Below, one piece after another: positions 1,006 to 58,052 of a stretch of 64,000 nucleotides of DNA. The notes under the pieces are model-generated. The model saw only the letters and a program-made list of their open reading frames with translations. It did no database searches and was not told the DNA's origin. Every line of letters begins with the position of its first letter. The stretch's first letter is position 1. A program made the translations under genes and the position numbers. The DNA is from Flavobacteriales bacterium (GTDB lineage: Bacteria > Bacteroidota > Bacteroidia > Flavobacteriales_F > PHOS-HE28): NCBI GenBank assembly GCA_016715895.1, contig JADJXH010000004.1:218876-282875 (forward strand), given 5' to 3'.

Positions 1006-3687
<2,682 letters not shown>

Positions 3688-3688
3688 G

Positions 3689-4180
3689 TCACCCAGCTGA
3701 ATAAACCAACTTGCCATTATCCTTAGCCCACGCTTCCGTGAAGCCAACGTGCGAAATGGCATTGGTGCTTCGATCGAGCTTGGCTTCGGTCTCCTTGCAA
3801 ACGATTTCTGGGGCCAGTTCATATATGACCTTCACTTCCAAAGGCCTCTTCTTGAAGAAGACGGCTAGGTAGATCTTGCGATTGCGTCGTATCCTCTCTA
3901 ATGATGCCTGCCTCTTGTCCTCCGGCTTATTGAACACCCGGTCCAACTGTCCGGATCCGCCTTCGAGACATGATAGATACTCGTACAGCAAGTCCTTGTC
4001 CTTGCGATCACGCGCGTCAGAGTCGTGCTTGGTCACGATTACCTCATGGCCTAGTATCTCGGCGATGATTATCTCCTTCACAAGCCCCGGCTGCAGGACG
4101 TTGAGGATGCCTATGCTGGTGGCCAATTCTTGCGCCTGCCTGACCAAAGCCACAATGCTCTTCAGTACCGTCGGACTCAT
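3689..4180 (-). CDS. Putative PvuII-like type II restriction endonuclease
   Basis: 163 aa, lower GC than the flanks, coupled to a DNA methyltransferase. By eye the sequence is colinear with PvuII as I recall it: [14 protein letters not shown] ~ QDLALKHGINDIFQ, DSDARD ~ GNDAVD, YEYLS ~ YELKS, VIYELAP ~ [16 protein letters not shown] ~ VMEHGTKIY. Confidence 0.6.
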
Positions 4181-42949: not shown

Positions 42950-44644
42950 ATGTCGAAGAACATCACCTCCCTCTCCGGCCGCGACGGCAAGGAGCTGGAC
43001 GACGCCCTGTGGGACCGGTTGCAAGCGGCCGCCGACCTTACGGGCACGCCATCAACGGACGCGCTCACCCGCATCGCGGATGAGTACCTCATCGGCGAGG
43101 CCATCACCTATGGCACCAGCACCTTCTACGACTTCCTGAAACCGGAGAACAAAGGCATCAAGGCCTACGTGTGCAACGGCAGCGCCTGCCTGGTGGCGGG
43201 CACGCAGGACAAGGTGCACCACGCACTGCGAAAGCACTTCAAGGAGGAGGAGATCGGGCACATGTGCTGCCTGGGGCGCTGCCACGAGAACAGCGCCTTC
43301 CACATCGGCGGTCGCAACTACAGCGGCGACAGCGTGGACCGCGTGGACGAGGTGGTGAAGGCGGTGCGTGAAGGTGGTGCGCACGGCGTGGCGGCGAACG
43401 GTGGGCACCATGTGGGCACCACCATGGAGGCCCCCATCCTCACAGCGCCCATGCCGCCGCTGCCGGAGTTCTACGCGGTGTGGGAGCGCGTGCTGCAGAG
43501 CGATCCGGCGGACATCCTGCAGGAGATCAAGGTGGCCACGATCCGCGGAAGAGGAGGGGCCGGTTTCCCCATGGGCTTCAAACTGGAGGCCTGCCGCAAC
43601 GCCACCGACACCACCGGCAACGGCACCCCGCGCAAGTACATCGTGTGCAATGCGGACGAAGGCGATCCGGCGGCCTTCAGCGACCGGTACCTGCTGGAGC
43701 AGCGTCCGCACCGTGTGCTGCTCGGCATGATGATCGCCGGCTACTGTGTGGGGGCCGATACGGGTGTCCTCTACATCCGGGCGGAATATCCCGAAGCGAT
43801 CGCCGCGGTGAAGGAGGCCATCCGGGAACTGGAGGCGGCCGGCTGGATCGGCACCGCCATCAAGGGCAGCGGCTTCCACTGGCGCTTCAAGGTGATCAAG
43901 GCGGCGGGTGCCTATGTGTGCGGTGAGGAGACGGCGCTGCTCAACAGCATCGAGGGCAAGCGCGGCGAGGTGCGCACCCGTCCCCCCTATCCGGCGCAGC
44001 AGGGTCTGTTCAACCGGCCCACGGTGGTGAACAACGTGGAGACGCTCGCCTGTGTGCCCTGGGTGGTGGAGCATGGCGGTGCGGCCTTCGCACGGCTCGG
44101 CTCCGAGAAGAGCAACGGCTCCAAGCTCGTCTGCCTGGACAGCGGCTTCAACCGCCCCGGTCTCTATGAGGTGGAGTGCGGCACCCCCCTCGCCCGTGTC
44201 ATCGACGAGCTCGGCCAGGGCTTCGCCCGCCCCACCAAGGCGCTGCATATCGGCGGACCGCTCGGCGGCATCGTTCCGATGGAGAAGATCAACGCGCTCT
44301 CCATCGATTTCGAGAGCTTCCAGAAGGAGGGCTTCCTCCTCGGGCATGCGAGCGTGCTCAGCATCCCCGCCGGCTTTCCGATGATCGACTACCTGGAGCA
44401 CCTCTTCGCGTTCACGGCGGCGGAGAGCTGCGGCAAGTGCTTCCCCTGTCGCATCGGTTCCACCCGTGGACGGGAGCTGATCCAGGGTGCACGCGACGGC
44501 CGGCGGATCGACCGGGCGCTGTTCCAGGACCTCATCGAGACGATGGAGATCGGGTCGTTGTGCGCGCTCGGCGGAGGACTGCCGCTCGGTGTACGCAATG
44601 CGCTTCAGTACTTCGGCGACGAGCTGCGTCCGGCGTTCACCTGA
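42950..44644 (+). CDS. NAD-dependent formate dehydrogenase flavoprotein subunit (NuoE-like plus NuoF-like fusion)
   Basis: CNGSAC...CCLGRC (2Fe-2S), IRGRGGAGFP, CNADEGDP, AYVCGEETALL, ESCGKCFPCRIG and SLCALG; TACCTTCG box at 42936-42943. Confidence 0.9.
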   Translation: MSKNITSLSGRDGKELDDALWDRLQAAADLTGTPSTDALTRIADEYLIGEAITYGTSTFYDFLKPENKGIKAYVCNGSACLVAGTQDKVHHALRKHFKEEEIGHMCCLGRCHENSAFHIGGRNYSGDSVDRVDEVVKAVREGGAHGVAANGGHHVGTTMEAPILTAPMPPLPEFYAVWERVLQSDPADILQEIKVATIRGRGGAGFPMGFKLEACRNATDTTGNGTPRKYIVCNADEGDPAAFSDRYLLEQRPHRVLLGMMIAGYCVGADTGVLYIRAEYPEAIAAVKEAIRELEAAGWIGTAIKGSGFHWRFKVIKAAGAYVCGEETALLNSIEGKRGEVRTRPPYPAQQGLFNRPTVVNNVETLACVPWVVEHGGAAFARLGSEKSNGSKLVCLDSGFNRPGLYEVECGTPLARVIDELGQGFARPTKALHIGGPLGGIVPMEKINALSIDFESFQKEGFLLGHASVLSIPAGFPMIDYLEHLFAFTAAESCGKCFPCRIGSTRGRELIQGARDGRRIDRALFQDLIETMEIGSLCALGGGLPLGVRNALQYFGDELRPAFT

Positions 44645-46093: not shown

Positions 46094-47213
46094 TATTGAT
46101 CCGGCATCGATATAGCGGACGATCGGCACGATCTGTGGATCTTGCCGAGGCATGCGCGAGAACGACTCCAGGAAGCTGTCGATGCCCGAGCTCAATGAGC
46201 GTCGTAGGCAGGCGGTGCAATGCAGGCTCAAGGGCATGGGCCTGAAGGAAACGGCCGAACTCTGTGGCATGTCCCGCAACACGGTGAACGAAGCCTGGCA
46301 ACGGTACAAGGCCGGTGGCTGGAAGGCCATTCGTGTGTGGAAGACCGGTCGCCCGGTGGGCAAGGGACGCATCCTGACAAGTGAGCAGGAGAAGGAGACA
46401 CAACGGCTGATCCGTGACAGAACGCCCGATCAGTTGAAAATGCCTTATGCGTTGTGGAACCGGCAAGCGGTGCGCGAGCTGATCGAGCGGCGCTACGACC
46501 GCAAGCTGGCCATACGCAGTGTGGGGCTCTATCTGGAGCGCTGGGGATTTACGCCGCAGAAGCCACTGCGCAAGGCCTACGAGCAGCGACCGGAGGCGGT
46601 GCGCAAGTGGCTGCACGAGGATTATCCGGCCATCCGTGCACGTGCCAAGGCTGAAGGTGCCGTGATCCACTGGGGCGATGAGACCGGTCTGCGCAGTGAT
46701 GACGTTCGCGGGCGCAGCTACTCCCTGCGAGGCCACACTCCCGTGGTCAGGGTGAACCACAACCGCCACGGCTGTTCGGTGATCTCCACGGTGACCAATC
46801 GCGGGGAAATGCGCTGGATGGTCTTCAAGGGCGCACTGAACAGCAGCATCCTGATCGGCTTTCTGAGAAGACTGGTCAAGGATAGCGACAACAAGGTGTT
46901 CCTGATCTTGGACAACCTCAGGGTCCACCACAGCAAGCCGGTCAAGGAATGGCTCGAGGAGCATCTGGAGAGCATCGAGGTCTTCCACCTGCCGAGTTAT
47001 TCGCCCGAACTCAACCCGGTGGAAGTAGCGAACGCAGCGCTGAAGGATGCCGTCACCAAGCACGCTCCAGCACGCAAGAAGGGGCAGCTTGAACTCTTCA
47101 CATCACGCTTCCTGCGTTCCCTCCAGCGACACCCCAAGCGCATCATCGCACTGTTCCAGAAAGACACCGTTCGTTACGCAGCCTGAGTCCAGATCATGAA
47201 TGCCGGATCAATA
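46094..47213 (+). mobile_element. IS630-family insertion sequence
   Basis: Terminal inverted repeats ATTGATCCGGCAT (46095-46107) and ATGCCGGATCAAT (47200-47212), a TA dinucleotide at both ends, and a single transposase ORF. Confidence 0.93.
46152..47186 (+). CDS. IS630 DDE transposase
   Basis: N-terminal HTH, GFTPQKP, WGDETG, LILDNLRVH and LPSYSPELNPVE. Confidence 0.95.
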   Translation: MRENDSRKLSMPELNERRRQAVQCRLKGMGLKETAELCGMSRNTVNEAWQRYKAGGWKAIRVWKTGRPVGKGRILTSEQEKETQRLIRDRTPDQLKMPYALWNRQAVRELIERRYDRKLAIRSVGLYLERWGFTPQKPLRKAYEQRPEAVRKWLHEDYPAIRARAKAEGAVIHWGDETGLRSDDVRGRSYSLRGHTPVVRVNHNRHGCSVISTVTNRGEMRWMVFKGALNSSILIGFLRRLVKDSDNKVFLILDNLRVHHSKPVKEWLEEHLESIEVFHLPSYSPELNPVEVANAALKDAVTKHAPARKKGQLELFTSRFLRSLQRHPKRIIALFQKDTVRYAA

Positions 47214-47325
47214 AGCAATGCTGTGCAAGTCTCGCTCCACCGGCACTTCCATGCCCTCCTCATCCGAGGAGCAGGGTTCGAAGCTGGACGCGCCCTTTCT
47301 ATCTTCGTGCGTTACGTATCTCGCC

Positions 47326-50190
47326 ATGAACCAGCCCCAGGCCAAGACCGGCACCTCCGCCCCTCCCGCCGCCAAGACCCAGTCCGCCCCGGCCTCCTCC
47401 AACAAGGCAGCCGTGGAGGTCGACCTCGCCTACATCGATGGTGTGGCCTACCCCATCCACAAGGGCGAAACGATGCTCGCCTTCCTGAAGCGGCACAAGG
47501 GTCCCAACCCGGTGCCCACGCTCTGCGACGCGCCCAACCTGGAGCCCTTCGGCAGCTGCCGCGTGTGCAGCGTGGAGGTGGCCCTTCAGGAGGACGGCCC
47601 CAGCAAGGTGATGGCCAGCTGCCACATCCCCGTGGGCAAGGGCATGTACATCACGGTGAACAGCCCGCGCATGGAGCGGCTGCGCAAGAACATCGTGGAG
47701 CTGGTGCTCACCGACTACGACACCGAGCGGCTGAAGACCGAGGACCACGGGCGGAACGAACTGTACAATGTCGTCCAGCAGATCGGCTTCGACATCGACA
47801 GCGTGCGCTACCCCAAGGGGAAGAACCACCTCGACACGCCGATGGACACGAGCCATCCGTACATGGTGAGCGACCTCAGCGCGTGCATCAGCTGCTACCG
47901 GTGCGTGCGCGCGTGCGACGAGGTGCAGGGCGAGTTCGTGCTCACCATGGCCGGCCGCGGCTTCGACAACCACATCGTCAAGGGCACCAACGAAAGCTTC
48001 AAGGACAGCGATTGCGTGAGCTGCGGCGCCTGCGCACAGGCCTGCCCCACCAGTGCCATCACAGACGTGTTCCGCGCCAAGGAGACCAAGGCCGATGAAG
48101 TGGTGCGCACCGTGTGCACCTATTGCGGCGTGGGCTGCAACCTGGAGGTGAAGGTGAAGGACGGCAAGGTCGCCGGCATCACCGCACCGCTGGAGGCCGA
48201 GGCCAACCAGGGCCACACCTGCCTCAAGGGCCGCTACGCCTTCCGCTTCTACGACCACCCCGAGCGCTTGCGCACCCCGCTCATCCGCAAGAACGGCGAG
48301 CTCGTGCCCGCCACCTGGGACGAGGCCTACGACTTCATCGTGGACGGCTTCATCCGCATCCGCGAGCAACATGGTCCGGACGCGCTGGCCGGCGTGAGCA
48401 GCGCGCGCTGCCCCAACGAGGAGAACTACCTCATGCAGAAGTTCTTCCGCGCGCAGGTGGGCACCAACAACATCGACGCGTGCGCGCGCGTGTGCCACAG
48501 CCCCACGGCCCTGGGCATGCAGAAGACCTTCGGCACCGGCGCGGCCACCAACAGCATCGACGACCTGAAGGACACGCACACCATCATGGTGATCGGTGCG
48601 AACCCCACCGACGCGCACCCGGTGACCGGCGCCAAGATCAAGCAGCAGATCATGAAGGGGAAGACCCTGATCGTGATCGACCCGCGCCGCACCGAGCTGG
48701 CCCGCTACGCCCACTACCACCTGCAGCTGAAGCCCGGCACCAACGTGGCCCTGCTGAACATGATGATGCACTTCATCGTCAAGGAGGGCTGGGTGAAGCA
48801 GGAGTTCATCGACCAGCGCACCGAGGGCTGGGCCGATTTCAAGAAGGAGATCCTCGCCGTGGACATCGACGCCATGGAGCGCGAGACCGGTGTGGACCGG
48901 AACCTGGTGCGTGAAGCCGCGAAAGCCTACGCCAGCTCGCCCGCCGCCATGAGCTTCCACGGCCTGGGCGTCACCGAGCACTACCAGGGCACCTTCACCG
49001 TGATGCAGATCGCCGACCTGGCGATGATGACCGGCAACATCGGTCGCCGCGGCGTGGGCGTGAACCCGCTGCGTGGCCAGAACAACGTGCAGGGCGCGGC
49101 CGACATGGGCTGCCAACCCCACCAGGGGGCAGGCTACTTCGCGGTGGACGAGCCTGCGAACATCCGGATGTACGAGCAGTTCTACGGCGTGGAGCTGCCC
49201 CACCACGCGGGCAAGAAGATCCCGCAGATGTACGACGCCATGCTCGCGGGCACGCTGAAGGCCTTCTGGGTGGCGGGCGAGGACATGGCGCAGACGGACC
49301 CCAACACCCTGCACGTGCGCAAGGCCCTGGGCCAGCTCGAGCTCTTCGTGGTGCAGGAGCTCTTCATGACCGAGACCGCCAAGCTCGCCCACGTGGTGCT
49401 GCCCGCCAGCAGCTTCCTGGAGAAGAGCGGCACCTTCACCAACGGCGAGCGCCGCATCCAGCGCGTGAACGCCGTGGTGGAGCCCATCGAAGGCACCAAG
49501 AGCGACGGGCAGATCACCTGCGACATCATGGAGCGCTACGCCGCGAAGACCGGCAGGCGCAGCGGCAACGCCAGCAAGGAGTACCACCCGAGATGGGTAC
49601 TGGAGGAGATCAGCCGCATCGTGCCCTTCTTCGCCGGGGTGAAGTGGGACGAGCTGGGCGAGAACGGCAAGCAATGGCCCGTGAAGCCCGACGGCAGCGA
49701 CACCAAGATCCTGCACGCCGACACCTTCAAGCGCGGCCTCGGCAAGTTCATCTTCAACCAATGGGAGAAGAGCCCCGAGGTGCGCGAGAACGAGAAGGAC
49801 TACCCCTACATCATCACCACCAACCGCGAGCTGGAGCACTACAACTGCGGCGCCATGACGCGGCGCACCGGCAACGGCGAGATCCTCACCGAGGACGTGC
49901 TGCTGATCAACCCCGCCGACGCGGAGAAGAACGGCATCGCCGAGGGCGACATGGTGTGTGTGGAGAGCCCGCGTGGCAAGGTGGACATCAAGGCCCGCAT
50001 CACCGACGAGGTGAAACCCGGCATCCTCAGCAGCACCTTCCACTTCCCGGAGATCATGCTCAACATCATCACCAGCAGCGTGAGCGATTCACTGGCGATG
50101 TGCCCGGAGTACAAGGTGGTGACGTGCAGGATACGCAAGGCGAAGAAGGCGCACCTCCGTCAGGCTGGAGAAGTGGTACTGAAAGCCTGA
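47326..50190 (+). CDS. fdhF: Formate dehydrogenase alpha subunit (Mo/W-bisPGD, Cys-type)
   Basis: N-terminal Fe-S motifs (CRVC, CISCYRCVRAC, CVSCGACAQAC, CTYCGVGC), ARVCH active-site Cys-His, LRGQNNVQG; start at ATG 47326 after a TATCTTCG box at 47300-47307. Confidence 0.95.
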   Translation: MNQPQAKTGTSAPPAAKTQSAPASSNKAAVEVDLAYIDGVAYPIHKGETMLAFLKRHKGPNPVPTLCDAPNLEPFGSCRVCSVEVALQEDGPSKVMASCHIPVGKGMYITVNSPRMERLRKNIVELVLTDYDTERLKTEDHGRNELYNVVQQIGFDIDSVRYPKGKNHLDTPMDTSHPYMVSDLSACISCYRCVRACDEVQGEFVLTMAGRGFDNHIVKGTNESFKDSDCVSCGACAQACPTSAITDVFRAKETKADEVVRTVCTYCGVGCNLEVKVKDGKVAGITAPLEAEANQGHTCLKGRYAFRFYDHPERLRTPLIRKNGELVPATWDEAYDFIVDGFIRIREQHGPDALAGVSSARCPNEENYLMQKFFRAQVGTNNIDACARVCHSPTALGMQKTFGTGAATNSIDDLKDTHTIMVIGANPTDAHPVTGAKIKQQIMKGKTLIVIDPRRTELARYAHYHLQLKPGTNVALLNMMMHFIVKEGWVKQEFIDQRTEGWADFKKEILAVDIDAMERETGVDRNLVREAAKAYASSPAAMSFHGLGVTEHYQGTFTVMQIADLAMMTGNIGRRGVGVNPLRGQNNVQGAADMGCQPHQGAGYFAVDEPANIRMYEQFYGVELPHHAGKKIPQMYDAMLAGTLKAFWVAGEDMAQTDPNTLHVRKALGQLELFVVQELFMTETAKLAHVVLPASSFLEKSGTFTNGERRIQRVNAVVEPIEGTKSDGQITCDIMERYAAKTGRRSGNASKEYHPRWVLEEISRIVPFFAGVKWDELGENGKQWPVKPDGSDTKILHADTFKRGLGKFIFNQWEKSPEVRENEKDYPYIITTNRELEHYNCGAMTRRTGNGEILTEDVLLINPADAEKNGIAEGDMVCVESPRGKVDIKARITDEVKPGILSSTFHFPEIMLNIITSSVSDSLAMCPEYKVVTCRIRKAKKAHLRQAGEVVLKA

Positions 50191-50193
50191 TCG

Positions 50194-50640
50194 ATGCGCA
50201 TCTACATCGACACCTCGGTCTTCGGTGGTTGTTTCGACGAGGAGTTCGAGGAATGGTCCTTGAAACTCTTCGAGCTGGTCGCAACCGGCAAATACACGGT
50301 GGTGATCTCGGATGTGACCGAGGATGAGTTACGGGATGCACCCGCACATGTCCGCGAAGTATTGAAGGACCTTTCGCAGAAGCAGTTGGAGGTGGTCAAA
50401 CTCACGGAGGAGTCAAGAGCATTGGCCCATGCCTATGTCAAGGAGCGCATCGTCACCGCCAGGTGGAAGGCGGATACGGAGCACATCGCTGTCGCCACCA
50501 TCGCCCAGGTTGACCTTCTGGTGAGCTGGAATTTCAAGCACATCGTGAATTACGACCGCATCCGGCTCTACAACGCTGTAAATTTGAAGCACGGCTACAA
50601 ATTGCTCGAGATCCGTAGCCCAAGAGACCTGACCACATGA
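50194..50640 (+). CDS. PIN-domain toxin-like protein
   Basis: IYIDTSVFGG, DTEHIAVAT and LVSWNFKHIVN. Confidence 0.88.
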   Translation: MRIYIDTSVFGGCFDEEFEEWSLKLFELVATGKYTVVISDVTEDELRDAPAHVREVLKDLSQKQLEVVKLTEESRALAHAYVKERIVTARWKADTEHIAVATIAQVDLLVSWNFKHIVNYDRIRLYNAVNLKHGYKLLEIRSPRDLTT

Positions 50641-50822
50641 ACACCGAAGCCAGAAAGAAGAAGCGCTTTGACGCCGTGGCCATGGTGCGCGAGATACGTG
50701 AGGCCCACTATCGCCGAGACACCGACCCCAACTTCGATCCAGCGGAGTTGAAGCGCATCAAGGCAAAGTGGACCAAGTTGCTTGAGGAGGACCTGAAGGC
50801 GCGGGGTAAGAAAGCGGCTTAA
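50637..50822 (+). CDS. Putative antitoxin downstream of the PIN gene
   Basis: 61 aa, KKKRFDAVAMVREIRE; ATGA overlap with the PIN stop. Confidence 0.7.
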   Translation: MNTEARKKKRFDAVAMVREIREAHYRRDTDPNFDPAELKRIKAKWTKLLEEDLKARGKKAA

Positions 50823-50824
50823 CA

Positions 50825-51075
50825 ACCGACGAGGTGAAGCCTGCCTACCGGCAGGCAGGCCCGGCATCCTCAGCAGCACCTTCCACTTCCCCGTGATCAT
50901 GCTCAACATCATCACCAGCAGCGTGAGCGACAGCCTGGCGATCCCGTTAGGGCGGGACAGGTCGTGCCCGGAGTACAAGGTGGTGATCCCGCTGGGGCGG
51001 GACAGGCTGTGCAGGATCCGGAAGGCGCGGAAGGCGCACTTGAGGAAGGCCGGCGAAGTCCAGGTGAAGGCATGA
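50825..51075 (+). pseudogene. fdhF: fdhF 3'-end relic copy 1, with three palindromic insertions
   Basis: Aligns to about 50002-50190 (TDEVKPGILSSTFHFP...KA*), with insertions at 50840-50859, about 50941-50961 and 50986-51006. Confidence 0.95.
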
Positions 51076-51401
51076 GCTTGAGAGCACTGCTGACAGCGGT
51101 TCTAGCGCTATGCCTGATCGGGGCAACGCTGCCATCGCACCCGCTTCATCTGTCCGGTACAGTTCGGTTCAAGAGTGAGCGAGTGGACTTACGCGTGGAA
51201 GGGCTCAGCCTCTTTGTGAAAGCAGGTGGTCGGATCCTTGCGAAGAGCGATGTTGATAAGGATGGTCGATACGCCATCAACTTTACTCCAGGTGACCAAC
51301 CTACTGTCGACTTCTACTATGCGGGCCTTGGTCACGATACCACCTTCATCAGGTCCTTCACTCGTTTCGAGAGCGATGTATTGATCTGGAATATTGACTA
51401 A
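51072..51401 (+). CDS. Small secreted hypothetical protein
   Basis: MSLRALLTAVLALCLIG signal peptide, beta-rich 109 aa; ATG overlaps the relic's TGA. Confidence 0.7.
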   Translation: MSLRALLTAVLALCLIGATLPSHPLHLSGTVRFKSERVDLRVEGLSLFVKAGGRILAKSDVDKDGRYAINFTPGDQPTVDFYYAGLGHDTTFIRSFTRFESDVLIWNID

Positions 51402-51449
51402 TGAGCACGCATTGGAACCTTAGTGCGCCTGCCTGCCGAAGGCAGGGCC

Positions 51450-51703
51450 AGGTGGACATCAAGGCCCGCATCACCGACGAGGTGAAGCCCGACATCCTCA
51501 GCAGCACCTTCCACTTCCCGGAGATCATGCTCAACATCATCACATCAAGTGTGAGCGACTCACTGGCGAGCCAGCTTTGGCGGGACAGGTCGTGCCCGGA
51601 GTACAAGGTGGTGATCCCGCTTGGGCGGGACAGGCTGTGCCGGATCCGGAAGGCGAAGAAGGCGCATTTGAGGAAGGCGGGAGAGGTGGTGCTTAAGGCG
51701 TAG
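51450..51703 (+). pseudogene. fdhF: fdhF 3'-end relic copy 2, with two in-frame palindromic insertions
   Basis: VDIKARITDEVKPDILSSTFHFPEIMLNIITSSVSDSLA-[SQLWRDRS]-CPEYKVV-[IPLGRDRL]-CRIRKAKKAHLRKAGEVVLKA*. Confidence 0.95.
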
Positions 51704-51841
51704 GTTCTTGGGGCGTTCCGGCTCGAAGACTCGCCGTCGGGCCATCCGCTCGTAGTCCTCGCCGCCCTCGTTCCTCAGTCGGCTGTGGGCTTTCCGCTTC
51801 AATGCGTCGCGCGGCTTAGTTTTGACTTGAGCAATTGACCG

Positions 51842-52996
51842 ATGGCAAAGAAGCAGTACAAGGTTCCGGTTTCCGGGGTGGTGGCGCAGTACGCCAGGAC
51901 GAGCCTTGGCCTATCGGTCGTGGATGCCTGCAAGATGCTGGAGATTGAGGCTGAGGAATTGGAGGCCATTGAATCCGGTGTGGAGCAGCCAGGGATTTTC
52001 TTGCTCAAGTCGATGGCTAGGGTCTACAAGCGGTCTTTGACTTTCCTGCTCCTCACCGAGGTGCCTTACGAGAAGCCGTTACCACGCGACCATAGGACAG
52101 CCGGCTCTGTCAAGCTTGACCATTTCCATTCGAAGACCATCCTTACAGTTCGGAAAGCCCGTACGCTCGCCATCTCTCAAATAGACCTGCTCAGGAACTT
52201 GAACTTGCCGGTGCCGGCGTTCAAGCACCGCTCGACGTTGCAGGATGATCCCAAGGCATTAGGACAAAAGCTGAGGCAACAGCTTGAGTTGTTCCACCTC
52301 CGCGAGGAGGGTATTACAGATGCGCAGGCCTTGGAACATACCATCGAAGCGGTCTCAGCTCTTGGCGTGCTGGTCTATCAACTGAGTCTGACCCAGGACG
52401 GCCTACGGGGCTTCTCCGTTTTGGACGAGGAGGTACCGATCATCGTTCTGAAACGGCGAGGGGAAATGCCGACCGCGAGATTGTTCACGCTTTTCCATGA
52501 ACTCGGTCACGTCATCCTTGGAGAAAGCGGCATGTGCGACCTGCACGCAGCAGATGGGGAGGCAATAGAACATTGGTGCAACAGCTTTGCCGCAGAGGTC
52601 CTGTTGCCGAGAGAGGAGCTGCGGCAACACACGGTGGTCGTTCAGCACCTCGCTGCAAATGCGGGTAAAGAGTGGGCAAGGGTGGAGTTGGCCAATATCG
52701 CCAAGGGATACCATGACGGCTTGGAGGTGGTATTGCGGGCATTGCTTTCTGAGAAGCTCACCACGCCAGAATTCTATGAGGAGCACCACCTGAAATGGAA
52801 AGAGAAAGCCTTTGGACGGGCAAAGAAGGGCCAGCCACGCGATACGATCAAAGGGAAAGTGCAGGAACGCGGACGTTCGTTCGTGCGCTTGATCTTCAAT
52901 GCCTTTGACCGTGAACGGATCGGCGCCATTCAAGCCTCGCAACTCCTTGATGTGCCGATGGACCGCTTCTCCCAAGCCCGTCAACTGGTAGTATGA
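51842..52996 (+). CDS. XRE-family HTH plus ImmA/IrrE metallopeptidase fusion
   Basis: N-terminal HTH (ARTSLGLS...LEAIESG) and FTLFHELGHVIL (HExxH) followed by EHWCNSFAAEVLLP. Confidence 0.92.
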   Translation: MAKKQYKVPVSGVVAQYARTSLGLSVVDACKMLEIEAEELEAIESGVEQPGIFLLKSMARVYKRSLTFLLLTEVPYEKPLPRDHRTAGSVKLDHFHSKTILTVRKARTLAISQIDLLRNLNLPVPAFKHRSTLQDDPKALGQKLRQQLELFHLREEGITDAQALEHTIEAVSALGVLVYQLSLTQDGLRGFSVLDEEVPIIVLKRRGEMPTARLFTLFHELGHVILGESGMCDLHAADGEAIEHWCNSFAAEVLLPREELRQHTVVVQHLAANAGKEWARVELANIAKGYHDGLEVVLRALLSEKLTTPEFYEEHHLKWKEKAFGRAKKGQPRDTIKGKVQERGRSFVRLIFNAFDRERIGAIQASQLLDVPMDRFSQARQLVV

Positions 52997-53513
52997 TGAA
53001 CTTGTTCGATGAGGATGAGGCCATCTATGCGTTCGACAGTGATGCGTTGGTGACACTTGAGCGATACTACAGCGACCTATCCGTCTTCGATGCGCTTTGG
53101 CAGGACCTGGCATGGCTTTCCCTCGCAGGCCGCTTCAAAGTCATCGACTTCGTGTACGACGAGGTAGTGGATAGCTACAAGGGCGACCGGGGGTTCCTGA
53201 AGTCCTGGTTGAAGAAGCAGCGCAAATACTGCTTCTGGGAAACCGATGAGAAGGCGATGATCTTATCGCAGCGGGTCATCAACGAGAATGTTAGGTCTGG
53301 GTTTCTGAAGCCTGGCAAACTGATTGGAGAGCGGGATGAGGCTGATCCATTCCTGATCGGGACGCTGCGGTAGAAGGTTTCATCATTGTCACCAAGGAGA
53401 AGACAACGGTCTCCAACAAGTTGCCGCAAGTGGCAGCGAAGTATGGTGCTCGCACCATCGGCATCGCGGACTTCTTGAAGGATCGCGGATTCAAGCTACA
53501 GCGCGGGTCTTAA
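52993..53513 (+). pseudogene. DUF4411-like PIN protein, frameshifted
   Basis: YAFDSDAL...EADPFLIG; the continuation AAVEGFIIVTKE...KLPQVAAKYG...DFLKDRG lies in another frame, shifted near 53360-53365. Confidence 0.8.
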
Positions 53514-53597
53514 ACTCCCCCGCTGCCGCGAGTCTGTGAATCGTGGCCTTCACCGCACCCCAGCCACCCCCTTCATCACCGCTGCGCTCATCCGTTA

Positions 53598-53649
53598 GGC
53601 TTGTTCGTCGTGCCGCAGTCCGACCGTGTGGTCGATGGTATGTACCGGC
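53598..53649 (+). repeat. About 50-bp direct repeat X, copy A (copy B at 57874-57924)
   Basis: ggcttgttcg-tcgtgccgcagtccgaccgtgtggtcgatggtatgtaccggc versus ggctcgttcgcccgtgccg--gtccgtccgagtggtcgatgatatgtaccggc. Confidence 0.75.
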
Positions 53650-53715
53650 TTGCCCAGTACCATGATCGCTGAGGTCAAGTGCGTGGCCCCACCATTGGGA
53701 ACGAACGTTCCGGGC

Positions 53716-54702
53716 TCACATCAAGAAGCCGTTCTCCTGCTCCACGGGGCCGGGGATGTCGGTATCGCCGATCATTTCGCGCAGGTCGATCTCAATTCCG
53801 CGTGCGATCGAGGTGATGGGCACATCGTTGTAGGTGCCTTCGAAGGGGTTCTCGGAATAGTCACCGATCATCTCCATCAGGAAGAAGATCCAGATGATGA
53901 GCGCGCTCAGGAAGGGTGATACCCAGAAGAGCCAACCCGCTGAACGGCCGATGACATCGAGCATGCCCAGCGGCACGAACACGGCGAAGACAAGCGTCAG
54001 CCACAGCGCTGTGCTGGCGTACTGGCGCGGGAAGGGGAAGTTCTTGATCCGCTCCGCACGTCCCTGTTCCGCATACAGCTCAGCGACATGTCCGTGGAAG
54101 GCCATGTGCCGGAAGTCATCGAAGTAGCCGGCATCCCGCAGCTCCTGCAGACGGATGCTCTGGTTGCGCAGCAATTGGGTGGCCAGGTTGCTTTGCTGGT
54201 ACACGCCGGACAGCTCCTGCTCGGGCAGGTATTTGGACATCTCCGCCTTGCATACCGGTCCGGGTTGCTCGCTCATCCGGGGCAGGTTCGCACTGTGCTC
54301 CAGCTCACGCGGATGCTCCCAAGCACGGGGCATCCGGAGCTGGTGGCGAAGGGCGGTGAGCCAGGCGATATGGCGATGGACGAGCTCGCGGCGGATGGCC
54401 TGGTCGTCCGGGCCCTTCACGAACGAGCAGACCGCAGCACCGAACGCGCGGCTGCTGTTCACGATGCCGCCCCAGATCTTGCGCGCCTCCCACGTGCGGT
54501 CGTACGAACTGTTGTTCTTGAAGCCGAGGTAGAAGGCCACCGCGATGCCGATGACGCTGATGGGCTGCCAGGGGATGCTGAGATCCGTGTGGAGCAGGTG
54601 AACAAGGATGTTCACCACGGTTGCGTAGGCCAGCCCGATGACAAAAGACCTCCTGGATCAGAAAAAGGTCATGAAGAAGCCGTAGTTGCGCTTGATGTAC
54701 AT
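53716..54702 (-). pseudogene. Bestrophin-like (UPF0187/YneE) channel gene with an in-frame TGA at codon 15
   Basis: FKNNSSYDRTWEARKIWGGIVNSSR, ERIKNFPFPRQY and ENPFEG; the upstream in-frame ATG at 54702 reads MYIKRNYGFFMTFF*SRRSF. Confidence 0.8.
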
Positions 54703-54842
54703 GGGTGTGCTTGGGAGCGTGAAGATGGGGAATGCGGCAGGTCGTCGCTTGCATCCGCGATCGACCGGTCCGGAGATGCACGGGACAAGGGCCTCCACGG
54801 TTGAGCTCATGCCTGGCATCGCACCACGGTGGCCATCACCCA

Positions 54843-54968
54843 CTCGCCCGCGTTTGCAACGCGGGCGATGATCCCGGCGCGCTTGCAGCGCGCACCGCTT
54901 CCGGCTCACATGGGTCATGGTCGTTGCAAACGACCTGCTTCCACGCCCGCGTTACAAACGCGGTCGAG
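54843..54968. repeat. 126-bp four-hairpin element (REPIN/MITE-like), copy A
   Basis: 25-bp terminal inverted repeats ctcgcccgcgtttgcaacgcgggcg and two internal hairpins with TTGCA loops. Confidence 0.88.
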
Positions 54969-55051
54969 CTCTGGCCAACGCGGGTCAGCGAAGGCTACCC
55001 CATCGGGTGGAAAGCCCGCGCGGGCACGCCTGCCCCGGGCCTGACCCGGGG

Positions 55052-55150
55052 GTGGACATCAAGGCCCGCATCACCGATGAGGTGAAGCCGGGCATCCTCT
55101 CTGGCACCCTCCACTTCCCGGAGATCGTGTTCAACATCATCACCATCAGC
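55052..55150 (+). pseudogene. fdhF: fdhF 3'-region relic copy 3 (first half)
   Basis: VDIKARITDEVKPGILSGTLHFPEIVFNIIT, preceded by the palindrome cctgccccgggcctgacccgggg. Confidence 0.92.
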
Positions 55151-56540
55151 GCGCATGCACCACCTCGAACCGTGCCCGTGCCAGGCTGCGGCCGTTGGCA
55201 TCACACAGGGTGGCCACATAGAGCCCCCCGGCCAGCGGGGAGGTGTCCACAACGACGCCGTCCGCTGATGCACCCGCCTGCTCCACCAACCGGCCAGCAG
55301 CATCCGTGATCTCGATCCACGCCGCCTGGGCCGCGCCGTCAAGGCGGATGTACATCGCATCATCCGCAGGATTGGGGCCCAGCGTCATGACGTTCATGTC
55401 GGTCGCTTCTTCCACAGCCGCGACCAGGCAGTTGAGGATCACGCCCACGTAGGCACCGCTGCTGGCGGCGATCACGATGTCCGGGAGCGCATCGGCATTG
55501 AAACGGCCCACGGCGAAGTCGATGGGATTCACGGCGGCGATGGAATGCACGGGAGGGCCGAACTGGCCCGCACCGTAGCCCGGGAACACCCGCACCGAAT
55601 TGTTGGCGTAGTCCGCCACCACCAGGTCGCCGAAACCGTCGAGGTCCATGTCCACTGACCGCACCAGCGCGGGACTGATGCCGCCGTACATCGTCACGGG
55701 CGCCGCGAAGCCACCGGTACCATCGCCCATGCGGAAGGAGAGGGAGTCCGGGGACGGATACGAGTTGGACACCACCACGTCCATGTCGCCGTTCGCATCC
55801 ACATCGATCGCCGAGGCGAAGATGCTGGTGTGCGGATGCGTGACGTGGGTCCGCGTTCCGAAGGTGCCGGGCCTTGTGCCCCACAGGATGCTCCAGAAGT
55901 GGACGACCTCGCCCAAGCCGGCCAGGTGGGTGTAGAGCACATCGAGGTGGCCATCCTCATTGAAGTCGGCGAGGTCCAGGGAAGTGGCCGGGACATCGGT
56001 GGGATGATCCGCGTGCGGCTGGAAGGTGCCATCGCCGTTGCCGATCAGCACGGCCAGGCCACCGCCACCCGCGCCATGGGGAACGAGCAGGTCGATGGCC
56101 CCGTCGTTGTCGAGGTCGCGCGCCATCAGGGTCCACGTTTCCCCGGAAGGGATGGCGTACGGGACAGGGGCATCAAAAGCTCCGCCGCCCAGGTTGAGCA
56201 GCACCTGCACATGGTCCACATGCGCGGTCACCAGGTCCGCGCGCGTGTCGCCGTTCAGATCGGCCGCGATGATGTCCACCGGGTACATCCCCACCGGCAG
56301 CGTGACGGCGGGCTGGAAGCTGCCGTCCCCATTACCGAAGAAGATCGACAGGTCGCCAGTGAGGTGGTTGCTCACGGCCATGTCCAGCAGTGTGTCATCG
56401 TTCAGGTGGCCGGCGGAGATGCCCCAGAGGTCAAGGCCGCCCGAGGCGACGAAGCCGGTATGGTCCAGGCAGATGTTCTGGCTGCGGAGCCCGCCGCCCA
56501 ACGTGAGCAGGACCAACGCGCATGGAACGTCGAAGCGCAT
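55146..56540 (-). CDS. FG-GAP/VCBS repeat protein with T9SS sorting domain
   Basis: Repeated DLNGDxxxDL motifs and a C-terminal LGPNPA...DAAGRLV...GGLYV domain. Confidence 0.9.
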   Translation of the reverse strand: MRFDVPCALVLLTLGGGLRSQNICLDHTGFVASGGLDLWGISAGHLNDDTLLDMAVSNHLTGDLSIFFGNGDGSFQPAVTLPVGMYPVDIIAADLNGDTRADLVTAHVDHVQVLLNLGGGAFDAPVPYAIPSGETWTLMARDLDNDGAIDLLVPHGAGGGGLAVLIGNGDGTFQPHADHPTDVPATSLDLADFNEDGHLDVLYTHLAGLGEVVHFWSILWGTRPGTFGTRTHVTHPHTSIFASAIDVDANGDMDVVVSNSYPSPDSLSFRMGDGTGGFAAPVTMYGGISPALVRSVDMDLDGFGDLVVADYANNSVRVFPGYGAGQFGPPVHSIAAVNPIDFAVGRFNADALPDIVIAASSGAYVGVILNCLVAAVEEATDMNVMTLGPNPADDAMYIRLDGAAQAAWIEITDAAGRLVEQAGASADGVVVDTSPLAGGLYVATLCDANGRSLARARFEVVHAR

Positions 56541-56740
56541 GGTCCGAAATTATCACCCTGGATGCGCCGCGCTCCGATCCTGGTGCCGCTCCGTTCAAAA
56601 GGATGGGCGATCGTTATTCACCGGCACGGTGCTGATCGTGCCTTAGCCCGCACGGCTACGCGTCTCCTACTTCCGCAGCTGGCGCGGATCTGTGATCCGT
56701 GTCCACCTCATCCAGCATAAGCAAGCCAGCCGATCGGCTG

Positions 56741-56968
56741 TCACTTCCGCATCCACCTTGCATTGGGGCTCATCCGATAGTGCTTGTCATCATAGGCCAT
56801 CAATCGAGGGTCAGCAGTGGCCTTCTTGGACACATGCGGCTCTCGCCCGGCGCGGATGGCTGCGCGTTCCACACACCGGAAGTGGTGGTTGGCTAGTCGC
56901 TTGTAGGGCTTCGCCGTACTGCCTTTACAGATACCGAAGTAAGGTGTATGTTTCCTTGAACGGGCCAT
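56741..56968 (-). CDS. Small basic conserved hypothetical protein (MxRSRK...MRK type)
   Basis: 75 aa, MARSRKHTPYFGI...KRLAN...DDKHY...WMRK; pattern recalled from a widespread uncharacterised family. Confidence 0.65.
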   Translation of the reverse strand: MARSRKHTPYFGICKGSTAKPYKRLANHHFRCVERAAIRAGREPHVSKKATADPRLMAYDDKHYRMSPNARWMRK

Positions 56969-57023
56969 AGCAGGTCAAGACGACTGTTGTGCGGCGCGGG
57001 TTGTCCGACTCGTGCCTCTCCCG

Positions 57024-57149
57024 CTCGCCCGCGTTTGCAACGCGGGCGATGATCCCGGCGCGCTTGCAGCGCGCACTGCTTCAGGCGTACATGGTTCATG
57101 GTCGTTGCAAACGACCTTCTTCCACGCCCGCGTTGCAAACGCGGGCGAG
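57024..57149. repeat. 126-bp four-hairpin element, copy B
   Basis: Same length and architecture as 54843-54968; its terminal arms are exact reverse complements. Confidence 0.88.
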
Positions 57150-57157
57150 CTCTGACC

Positions 57158-57199
57158 GTGCCGGACCCGGAAGGCGAAGAAGGCGCATTTGCGGAAGGC
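57158..57199 (+). pseudogene. fdhF: fdhF 3'-end relic copy 4 (short second half)
   Basis: gtgccggacccggaaggcgaagaaggcgcatttgcggaaggc differs at only 2 nt from the same stretch of copy 2. Confidence 0.85.
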
Positions 57200-57228
57200 A
57201 TTCGCTGCCGCGGGTCTGTAGCTCACGC

Positions 57229-57606
57229 CTATACCGCCACCACCCGCCCCTGCATCCACTCACCGATCTCATCCGCAGACGAACGACCTTCAGCGACGCG
57301 GATGGTCAGCTCGTAGAGTTCATCCTGCGTTGCTTCGATCCGGAAGCCCTCCTTGCGCAAGAGCAGAAGTGCGAGACCGAGGCCTGTGCGCTTGTTACCG
57401 TCCAACCACGGATGCCGGATGATCACGCTCTCCATCAGCGCGGCAGCCTTGGCGACCGGTGAAGGATAGAGATCCTCACCACCGAATGTTTGGTATGGCC
57501 GTGCCAAGGCGGCTTCCAAAGCACCCTGATCTCGCAAACCCTGCGCTCCTCCGAATGCCTCGATGGAACGCGCGTGAAACTTTTCGGCGAGGTCCAACGA
57601 GATCAT
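57229..57606 (-). CDS. Fic/Doc (death-on-curing) family toxin
   Basis: GLRDQGALEAALARP and HPWLDGNKRTG. Confidence 0.93.
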   Translation of the reverse strand: MISLDLAEKFHARSIEAFGGAQGLRDQGALEAALARPYQTFGGEDLYPSPVAKAAALMESVIIRHPWLDGNKRTGLGLALLLLRKEGFRIEATQDELYELTIRVAEGRSSADEIGEWMQGRVVAV

Positions 57607-57788
57607 TTCGCGAGCCGGGCCAACACCTCCCGGTTCTCCTCGATGATCTTGTCGATCAACTGATCGTCGCTCTCCTTGGTAGAGCCGACCTTCAGCTCAT
57701 CGAGCAGATCGATGAGCTTGATCAACGCCTTGTCTGAAAGGCCTTCGATGGCTTTCGCGGCCTTCTCGCGGAGTTCCTTGGTGCTCAT
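57603..57788 (-). CDS. Putative antitoxin for Doc
   Basis: 61 aa ending KIIEENREVLARLAK, 4-nt overlap with doc; TAGTTTTG box at about 57826-57833. Confidence 0.8.
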   Translation of the reverse strand: MSTKELREKAAKAIEGLSDKALIKLIDLLDELKVGSTKESDDQLIDKIIEENREVLARLAK

Positions 57789-58052
57789 GGGTTGCGCCGT
57801 AGCACGGCGGAGGTGTATGGTCCAACAAAACTAACGCAACAGCCCCCCCCCCAATGCAGGGCCACCTGCTTTGGGCTCGTTCGCCCGTGCCGGTCCGTCC
57901 GAGTGGTCGATGATATGTACCGGCGCGCCGCCCACACGCGGCGCAGCGCTGATGGGAACAGACTCTAGTACTACCTTCTTAACGATCCTTGTGCTCCAGC
58001 TGCCAGCGTGGACCGATCTGCGCCACTACCTTGTCCGAACATCCAAGCCCGC

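Follow-up and report, generated by a model that had tools for sequence, protein, structure and literature searches.

Repetitive extragenic palindromic sequences (REPs) consist of a hairpin and a foot tetranucleotide, of which several different versions exist, and copies are found in frame within genes (PMC3733652, PMC6006769). The in-frame copies include those in tnpA_REP genes, and palindromic forms with a double foot have also been described (PMC6006769, PMC3733652). A comparable family of hairpins is present in a 64-kb stretch of a Flavobacteriales genome (contig JADJXH010000004.1), which is referred to as the window in its entirety and whose positions are used as coordinates throughout. 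The hairpins end in an invariant CAGG, which on the other strand places a CCTG foot at the 5' side of the hairpin, and they are found downstream of a formate dehydrogenase gene, fdhA, in or at the borders of partial copies of its 3' end (referred to as relics). The hairpin type called E is 21 nucleotides (nt) in length, and A-type hairpins are those with a CCTGCC/GGCAGG stem. L-numbers and P-numbers designate loci and open reading frames (ORFs), respectively, from other genomes. The reading preferred here, with a rough probability of 0.6, is that these sequences form a REP-like superfamily of 20- to 22-nt nonautonomous mobile hairpins of Bacteroidota that have a CCTG foot and a YRTG target.

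Like REPs and REPINs (REP doublets forming hairpins), the CAGG hairpins are short, GC-rich, imperfect palindromes with a conserved foot tetranucleotide, and they fold as single-stranded DNA. Their stems vary while the foot is kept, a double-foot form occurs (L079), and copies are occasionally found in frame within genes. However, the foot is CCTG rather than the GTAG, GTGG, CGTC, or CnGA of REPs, and CCTG is not among the feet described in PMC3733652 or PMC6006769. REPs measure about 20-40 nt, are dispersed in many, mainly extragenic copies per genome, and can have a cognate Y1 transposase gene bracketed by inverted copies of the repeat (a REPtron). REPINs are inverted doublets whereas the CAGG units of 20 to 22 nt are mostly single; E copies are nearly all singlets or direct neighbors, with inverted pairs only in Marivirga (L023). 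Additionally, one sequence type of CAGG hairpin is kept across a phylum and has a visible YRTG target, and none of the inspected genes for RAYTs (REP-associated tyrosine transposases) is flanked by CAGG hairpins. It is in the foot, the size, the singlet habit, the phylum-wide conservation, and the visible target that the family differs from known REPs.

Elhai and coworkers reportedly described SDR4-6 of Nostoc in 2008 as "very small mobile repeated elements" of 21-27 nt with near-identical cores and no known enzyme. The CAGG hairpins resemble these elements in size, dispersal, and nesting in other repeats, since E sits in runs of CATGTGNN and in other palindromes. The phylum and the sequence of the Nostoc elements are different, however, and the CAGG units have a hairpin-tag architecture and a defined YRTG target. 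IS200/IS605 elements and their palindrome-associated miniature derivatives likewise insert beside a specific tetranucleotide on one side without target duplication and use a hairpin as a recognition handle, but they have two different hairpin ends that TnpA recognizes and are at least 100 nt in length whereas E has only one hairpin within its 21 nt. Rickettsia palindromic elements share a sole property with E, that of being palindromic repeats in frame in ORFs; they are about 100-150 nt in length, occur only in Rickettsia, and have neither sequence nor architecture in common with the E of Bacteroidota. The attC sites of integrons are also folded hairpins beside cassettes, and the window hairpins are similarly placed in a toxin-antitoxin/defense array. 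However, attC sites are 57-141 bp in length, contain R''/L'' and L'/R' boxes (GTTRRRY), and require IntI, whereas the CAGG units have no GTTRRRY, and here, unlike in an integron array, copies of a 250-nt gene fragment separate the cassettes.

Hairpins in the fdhA relics

The intact fdhA gene (ORF 47218-50190) encodes a formate-dehydrogenase alpha-type molybdopterin oxidoreductase and is followed by four partial copies of its 3' end, all on the plus strand. Relic 1 (50827-51075) contains one A-type hairpin and two E units, and relic 2 (51452-51703) contains two E units; the intact gene lies 0.9 kb upstream of these E-bearing relics. Relic 3 (55052 to about 55150) is truncated on its 3' side. 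Relic 4 (57158-57199) starts at the right-hand junction of the second E site (|GTGCCGGA) and abuts a 141-nt REP cluster.

When the relics were aligned with the intact 3' end, net 21-nt insertions appeared at two fixed positions in each of relics 1 and 2. The intact gene is empty at both positions. The inserts are in frame, in agreement with the original prediction, and are translated as IPLGRDR in the fdhA frame. The window copies have the sequence type T-CCCGC-TNGG-GCGGG-A-CAGG-Y and are on the plus strand. In relic 1, the E unit at site 1 (50942-50962, TCCCGTTAGGGCGGGACAGGT) adds 21 nt to the sequence of the intact gene and has a T-G wobble in its stem, while the unit at site 2 (50987-51007, TCCCGCTGGGGCGGGACAGGC) is a canonical copy. 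The unit at site 1 of relic 2 (51570-51590, GCCAGCTTTGGCGGGACAGGT) is degenerate, with a decayed 5' stem arm and only the 3' half (GGCGGGACAGG) intact, and the unit at site 2 is found at 51615-51635 (TCCCGCTTGGGCGGGACAGGC). The corresponding empty target sites in the intact gene lie within 50095-50130 (plus strand) and read GCGA|TGTGCC (50098|50099) and GGTGA|CGTGCAGG (50122|50123). The E 20-mer (TCCCGCTGGGGCGGGACAGG) has three matches in the window at three or fewer mismatches compared with 0.01 expected by shuffling, and no E copies were found elsewhere in the 64 kb. These matches, together with the scan of a genome collection, exclude a chance origin of E.

The remaining window hairpins have other stems. 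An A-type hairpin (CCTGCC-TACC-GGCAGG-CAGG-C; 50840-50860, plus strand) lies within relic 1, 13 nt from its 5' border. It is a net 20-nt insertion that does not keep the frame, and an identical 20-mer is present in a Chitinophagaceae genome (L015). A second A-type hairpin (51428-51446; CCTGCC-TTC-GGCAGG-CAGG-CGCAC on the minus strand) is found at the 5' border of relic 2 and recurs at the same relic border in L090 and in the relic ORFs P0005 and P0026. A third hairpin (55029-55051; CCCCGGG-TCAGG-CCCGGGG-CAGG-CGTGCC on the minus strand) is found at the 5' border of relic 3. The latter two, with their CAGG tag on the minus strand, sit at relic borders and are not insertions into a reading frame. 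All seven hairpins that had been predicted are present, with the last starting at 55029 rather than 55028, and they have different stems and a common CCTG/CAGG end, as had been proposed. Folding of the window hairpins as single-stranded DNA gave stems of 6-8 bp and -5.4 to -9.2 kcal/mol (-3.6 kcal/mol for the degenerate copy). About 7 of the roughly 12 sites in the window that consist of a hairpin followed by NCAGG cluster within 4.2 kb.

Insertion and target site

The units insert discretely, without duplication and with a target preference, and they combine varying stems and a constant tag with a spread across the phylum. Thiolase relics in L007 and L054 contain a net insertion of 21 nt relative to the empty site ACGA|TGTGCG. 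In L020, two of three paralogous RHS modules are filled (empty site GTGTT|CATGCC, net 21 nt), and E insertion changes YTGH-E-HLDEF to YTGH-SLSRPSGK-HLDEF. Filled and empty versions are also found for a noncoding repeat in L068 (CCA|TATGAC, net 21 nt) and, inside another palindrome, for a noncoding repeat in L036 (CAC|CCCTCC, net 20 nt). There is no target-site duplication in at least seven filled/empty pairs.

A flank logo of 66 Bacteroidota copies has the 3' flank Y-Y-R-T-G-C, in which position +23 is T in 82% and position +24 is G in 77% of the copies. Base -1 is A or T and is G in only one of the 66. Units are inserted directly 5' of YRTG (on the foot strand, 3' of CAYR), in most cases behind an A. 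The conserved TG is a feature of the target and not of the element, since empty sites already hold it. A target-site bias, on which the original prediction had in part depended, is therefore evident from both the logo and the filled/empty pairs.

An A-type unit of 22 nt (a CCTG/CAGG hairpin) interrupts a RAYT gene in L020 and causes a frameshift. An intact allele, the protein of which is 98% identical and the aligned DNA flanks of which are about 91% identical, has the empty site GAT|GTTTTT. This suggests that the insertion may be a fairly recent event, as the upstream sequence and the inverted repeat are common to both alleles. The gene (L020 3220-3990; also L117) has 28-nt flanking inverted repeats and is located between RHS orphan modules.

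There are no stop codons in five of the six reading frames of E, and the sixth has one only if the loop base N is A. Given this pattern and a length of 21 nt (seven codons), E does not close an ORF. The disruption of the RAYT gene shows that members of other lengths break frames. The proposal that the family inserts in frame thus holds for E but not for the 20-nt unit at 50840, the border hairpins at 51428 and 55029, or the 22-nt unit. Frame keeping is a property of the 21-nt length and not of the whole hairpin family, which has 20- and 22-nt relatives.

Distribution of E

The additional copies that the original prediction expected beyond this locus are abundant. The E pattern TCCCGYTNGGGCGGGACAGG was found at 80 or more loci in the genome collection, compared with about 9 hits estimated by chance under uniform composition, and 64 of the matches listed are from Bacteroidota with unrelated flanks. 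They are distributed among Flavobacteriales, Chitinophagales, Cytophagales, Bacteroidales, Sphingobacteriales, Saprospiraceae, and Rhodothermales, and several assemblies were matched three times among the loci listed. A further 14 E copies with other loops are present in 475 kb of E loci (about 1 per 34 kb near the seed copies). Some E units lie within ORFs that seem intact, namely two in the ORF for a beta-helix protein (L065) and one in that for a type I restriction S subunit (L040). The homologs of the beta-helix protein do not cover the E-bearing region and so provide no insert-free comparison.

E units occupy several recurrent settings. In Marivirga, an E unit lies 4 nt past a group II intron D1-D4 match (L023 3026-3520 and 6562-7050; L078), and an inverted E-like unit follows 290 nt beyond E; this arrangement is present in two tandem 3.5-kb copies. 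In high-GC Flavobacteriales (L001, L010, L011, L030, L031, L053, L060, L072, L079), E is often located within runs of the CATGTGNN octamer, which holds the YRTG target, and several E units are sometimes found there in tandem. In a Chitinophagaceae assembly (L012 3530-3700, L015, L068), E recurs at one position (TTCCA|TATGAC) within a repeat about 110 nt long that precedes ATGAAAAA start regions, and filled, degenerate, and empty copies of this repeat occur in one genome.

Searches of Rfam with the window from 46 to 60 kb gave no match at an expectation value of 1 or below, and the only matches in ten E loci were to group II introns and tRNAs, none on E itself. A tRNA origin of E, an idea raised by two matches in Candidate Phyla Radiation (CPR) genomes, was rejected because ARAGORN found no tRNA over the motif. 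A phage origin was rejected because the 20-mer has no match in 2.9 million viral contigs. Neither the E sequence nor the peptide IPLGRDR was found in the literature searched.

Variable stems and a constant tag

When E is masked, CAGG is the most frequent 4-mer following GC-rich hairpins in the E loci (29 of 1,202, which is 6.2 times the uniform frequency of the 256 possible tails). The same tag and YYRTG flank accompany the stems CCTGCC/GGCAGG (the window copies, L015 in three copies, L020, and L041), CCTACC/GGTAGG (three copies in L079), and CCCCGC/GCGGGG (L022). The general unit consists of a GC-rich stem of 5-7 bp, a 3- to 6-nt loop, and the invariant CAGG. Units are 20-22 nt in length in the family (20-23 nt in the window), and the commonest type overall is E, T-CCCGC-TNNG-GCGGG-A-CAGG-Y. 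Fully palindromic copies that have CCTG on the 5' side as well are found in L079 (CAGACCTG-CCTACC-GATC-GGTAGG-CAGGTCTG). A constant tag with varying stems would be expected if a folded hairpin plus a guide tetranucleotide is recognized.

RAYT genes and a second type of REP

The RAYT of L020 matches NCBIfam NF047646 with 88.8 bits (cutoff of 80) and belongs to a family for which the protein collection contains over 3,300 homologs, the named matches being from Bacteroidota (Fulvivirga, Reichenbachiella, Cyclobacteriaceae). Its motifs resemble those of Bacteroidetes subclass 2.6 (PMC6006769). A motif scan and hidden Markov model (HMM) search of 80 E loci found RAYT genes only in L020 and, as a fragment, in L012. 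RAYT flanks were inspected in L020 and 19 loci of two clusters, where the flanking repeats are REPs of another type (CGCGTTTGCAACGCG or CTCGTTTGTAACGAG). An HUH/Y1 transposase flanked by the CAGG hairpins, as had been proposed, was thus not found in these loci. The original prediction of a distinct REP class therefore holds insofar as the hairpins are a true tagged, dispersed, REP-like family, while the link to RAYT or HUH enzymes was not found in the RAYT loci inspected.

The window contains two 141-nt elements (54836-54976 and 57017-57157) that are 92% identical and have 25- to 26-nt terminal inverted repeats and four REP-like hairpins. Their core, CGCGTTTGCAACGCG, forms the terminal inverted repeats and is shared with the REPs found beside Bacteroidota RAYT genes (L108-L116). 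One of the two elements directly adjoins relic 4, precisely at E site 2, and the other is located about 50 nt before the relic 3 hairpin. The 141-nt elements look like clusters of the REPIN/BIME (bacterial interspersed mosaic element) type. The window therefore holds RAYT-type REPs that are distinct from the CAGG-tagged hairpins.

fdhA relics in other genomes

A search with the relic peptide found 142 short ORFs from many Flavobacteriales metagenomes. In a comparison of 13 relics and 5 intact 3' ends, E is present at site 2 in nine relics and at site 1 in four. Every combination of presence and absence occurs, so that either the relics must have recombined with one another or inserts must have been gained and lost repeatedly. 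The junction dinucleotide at site 1 is TC in all four filled copies, and that at site 2 is CT in all but two (TT in L092_relA; L081_relA is diverged). Since the dinucleotides are nearly all the same at each site, each of the two fdhA insertions probably happened once, long ago, and was then carried along as the relic module spread, and the window relics 1 and 2 probably have their E insertions by common descent. Contigs of a related strain from sludge metagenomes contain the same cassette and a relic with both E units, and a metagenome census of E in fdhA gave two loci. P0046, a candidate for an intact fdhA with an insert, proved to be a longer relic behind a complete gene.

Relics also contain other inserts at fixed sites, including one of 33 nt after GILSS (with the hairpin GTCGCC...GGCGAC), one of 39 nt after NIIT, and a 24-nt alternative insert at E site 1 that encodes the peptide ILRQAQDGV. 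These are found in L083 (9990-10220), L086 (5950-6305), L090 (3090-3378), and L087 (9960-10190). All are multiples of three in length, and membership in the CAGG family is not obvious.

Mobility of the hairpins and alternative explanations

If the CAGG hairpins are mobile REP-like units, they would be mobilized in trans on single-stranded DNA by an HUH Y1 enzyme (RAYT or IS200-like) that recognizes the hairpin plus the CAGG/CCTG tag. Units would be inserted as blocks 5' of YRTG without target duplication. The E units of the window would be inherited insertions in two related fdhA relic copies, and the conserved fdhA codons GCG ATG TGC and GTG ACG TGC would merely happen to form the target.

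Several observations weigh against this explanation. E is a 21-nt singlet with one hairpin, and nothing so small is known to be moved by a Y1 enzyme. The exact conservation of E across a phylum differs from the usual species specificity of REPs. Neither E nor the A-type hairpin was found as a flanking repeat of a RAYT gene in L020 and the 19 further loci, and all-against-all clustering of 1,070 ORFs from 80 loci yielded no recurrent gene family beside E. E was never found among the five intact fdhA 3' ends compared, and the contigs of four sludge/landfill runs contained no E-less allele and no deletion. Lastly, all of the window copies are in relics, so descent and recombination may explain the local pattern better than transposition does.

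It is possible, though unlikely, that the CAGG hairpins instead serve as functional ends or sites of recombination in a cassette system lacking an integrase, which moves cargo together with a replacement 3' end into YRTG sites. Repeated insertion would then build the array of relics and cassettes, and solo E units would be minimal "empty" insertions. As such a system would have it, each of the four relic 5' borders in the window has a family hairpin no more than 16 nt away or coincides exactly with an E target site (relic 4 starts at the E site 2 junction). Arrangements in which an intact gene is followed by a hairpin and a relic, with no cargo, are found in L090 (fdhA) and L054 (thiolase). 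The hairpin at the L054 joint (CAGGCT|GTG|AACGG) is E-type, and its 25-nt loop contains a palindrome of its own. The same architecture in L007 includes cargo, in that the thiolase gene is followed by one cargo gene and then by a thiolase 3'-end relic carrying E. The thiolase architectures are located at 5280-6300 in L007 and at 3460-3830 (minus strand) in L054, with E at VVT-M-CVG (ACGA|TGTGCG). The islands also hold toxin-antitoxin/defense cassettes without an integrase. However, many relic borders in other loci are without a hairpin, the borders vary and have no single fixed core, and the orientation of border hairpins is inconsistent, and for these reasons a causal role of the hairpins in the relic joints is a minority reading. 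The cassette system also predicts that E is sometimes present in the intact genes, where it was never found, and the hairpin at the VDIKA border is common by descent and so counts as one event only. The evidence tying the hairpins to the recombination points of the array, as the original prediction had it, is circumstantial. Less probable still is a scheme in which the CCTG-foot hairpins would be the ends used by a single-strand DNA enzyme that moves cassettes plus a spare 3' end, with every insertion into a YRTG site leaving the displaced 3' end behind as a relic. This would produce integrase-less arrays of defense and toxin-antitoxin cassettes behind fdhA, thiolase, and RHS genes, with the 21-nt length selected to keep the frame.

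A quite improbable alternative is that there is no dedicated transposition. A relic module that spreads horizontally would have received one or two insertions long ago, and further copies of these would have arisen through homologous recombination, through gene conversion, or through template switching at microhomologies. Relics that carry insertions would persist because interrupted homology protects the cassettes from deletion. Common descent predicts the shared junction dinucleotide at each fdhA site, and it is in keeping with this that relics across genomes are closer to each other than to the resident gene and that the cassette and the relic with its two E units recur in the related sludge strain. 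The targets, additionally, share microhomology with the conserved E flanks. Yet descent of this kind leaves unexplained the dozens of unrelated E contexts across Bacteroidota classes, the independent filled/empty pairs (thiolase, RHS, noncoding repeats, and the RAYT gene), and the stem variants that keep the tag. It is very unlikely that the hairpin is a selected functional motif (a protein-binding site, RNA stabilizer, or terminator) rather than a mobile unit, as its exact conservation across the phylum and the many copies just past ORF ends might suggest, since it matches no Rfam family in the regions searched, has no T-run after the hairpin, is present in both orientations within coding regions and decaying relics, and in one case disrupts a gene.

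The island downstream of fdhA

The relics are part of a variable island 3' of fdhA (50190-57800) that is bounded on its far side by a Reg_prop gene. Related islands were retrieved directly 3' of fdhA in other genomes, several of them also with a Reg_prop gene on the far side. The cassettes between the window relics encode a PIN protein with a 61-amino-acid (aa) ORF, a 109-aa ORF, and an ImmA/M78-helix-turn-helix (HTH) protein with DUF4411; further cassettes contain a bestrophin-like gene, an FG-GAP/type IX secretion system (T9SS) protein, and a Fic/Doc pair. Neither the window island nor any of 12 related islands contains an integrase. Related Flavobacteriales islands (L081-L097) contain variable toxin-antitoxin/defense cargo between 5'-truncated fdhA relics. 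Across these and the window, the cargo includes PIN, ImmA with DUF4411, Fic/Doc, a DUF4011 helicase, XhoI restriction-modification, AAA_15/21, KilA-N, and RHS genes, and every cassette begins directly after a stop codon.

Some of the window cargo looks truncated or decaying. The DUF4411 ORF (52993-53500) has 126 aa compared with 164 aa in L083, and the bestrophin-like gene (53716-54800) covers only profile positions 44-288. Directly upstream of fdhA is a 344-aa ORF (46152-47186) that resembles an IS630-type transposase by eye alone and is placed between fdhA and a gene for a NuoF-like subunit (42950-44644).

Significance

If the CAGG hairpins are mobile as proposed, a 21-nt hairpin would be among the smallest mobile DNA units known. 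It would be a unit that is kept across a phylum of major gut and environmental bacteria, follows a readable target rule, and leaves reading frames unbroken. The hairpins would provide a concrete substrate in the search for an enzyme, whether of the Y1/RAYT class with a previously unreported CCTG foot or acting by another mechanism. For annotation, they would account for puzzling insertions of seven residues (IPLGRDR, LSRPSG) and for spurious small ORFs in the genomes of Bacteroidota. They would also be a marker with which to trace the build-up of small defense and toxin-antitoxin cassettes behind conserved genes.

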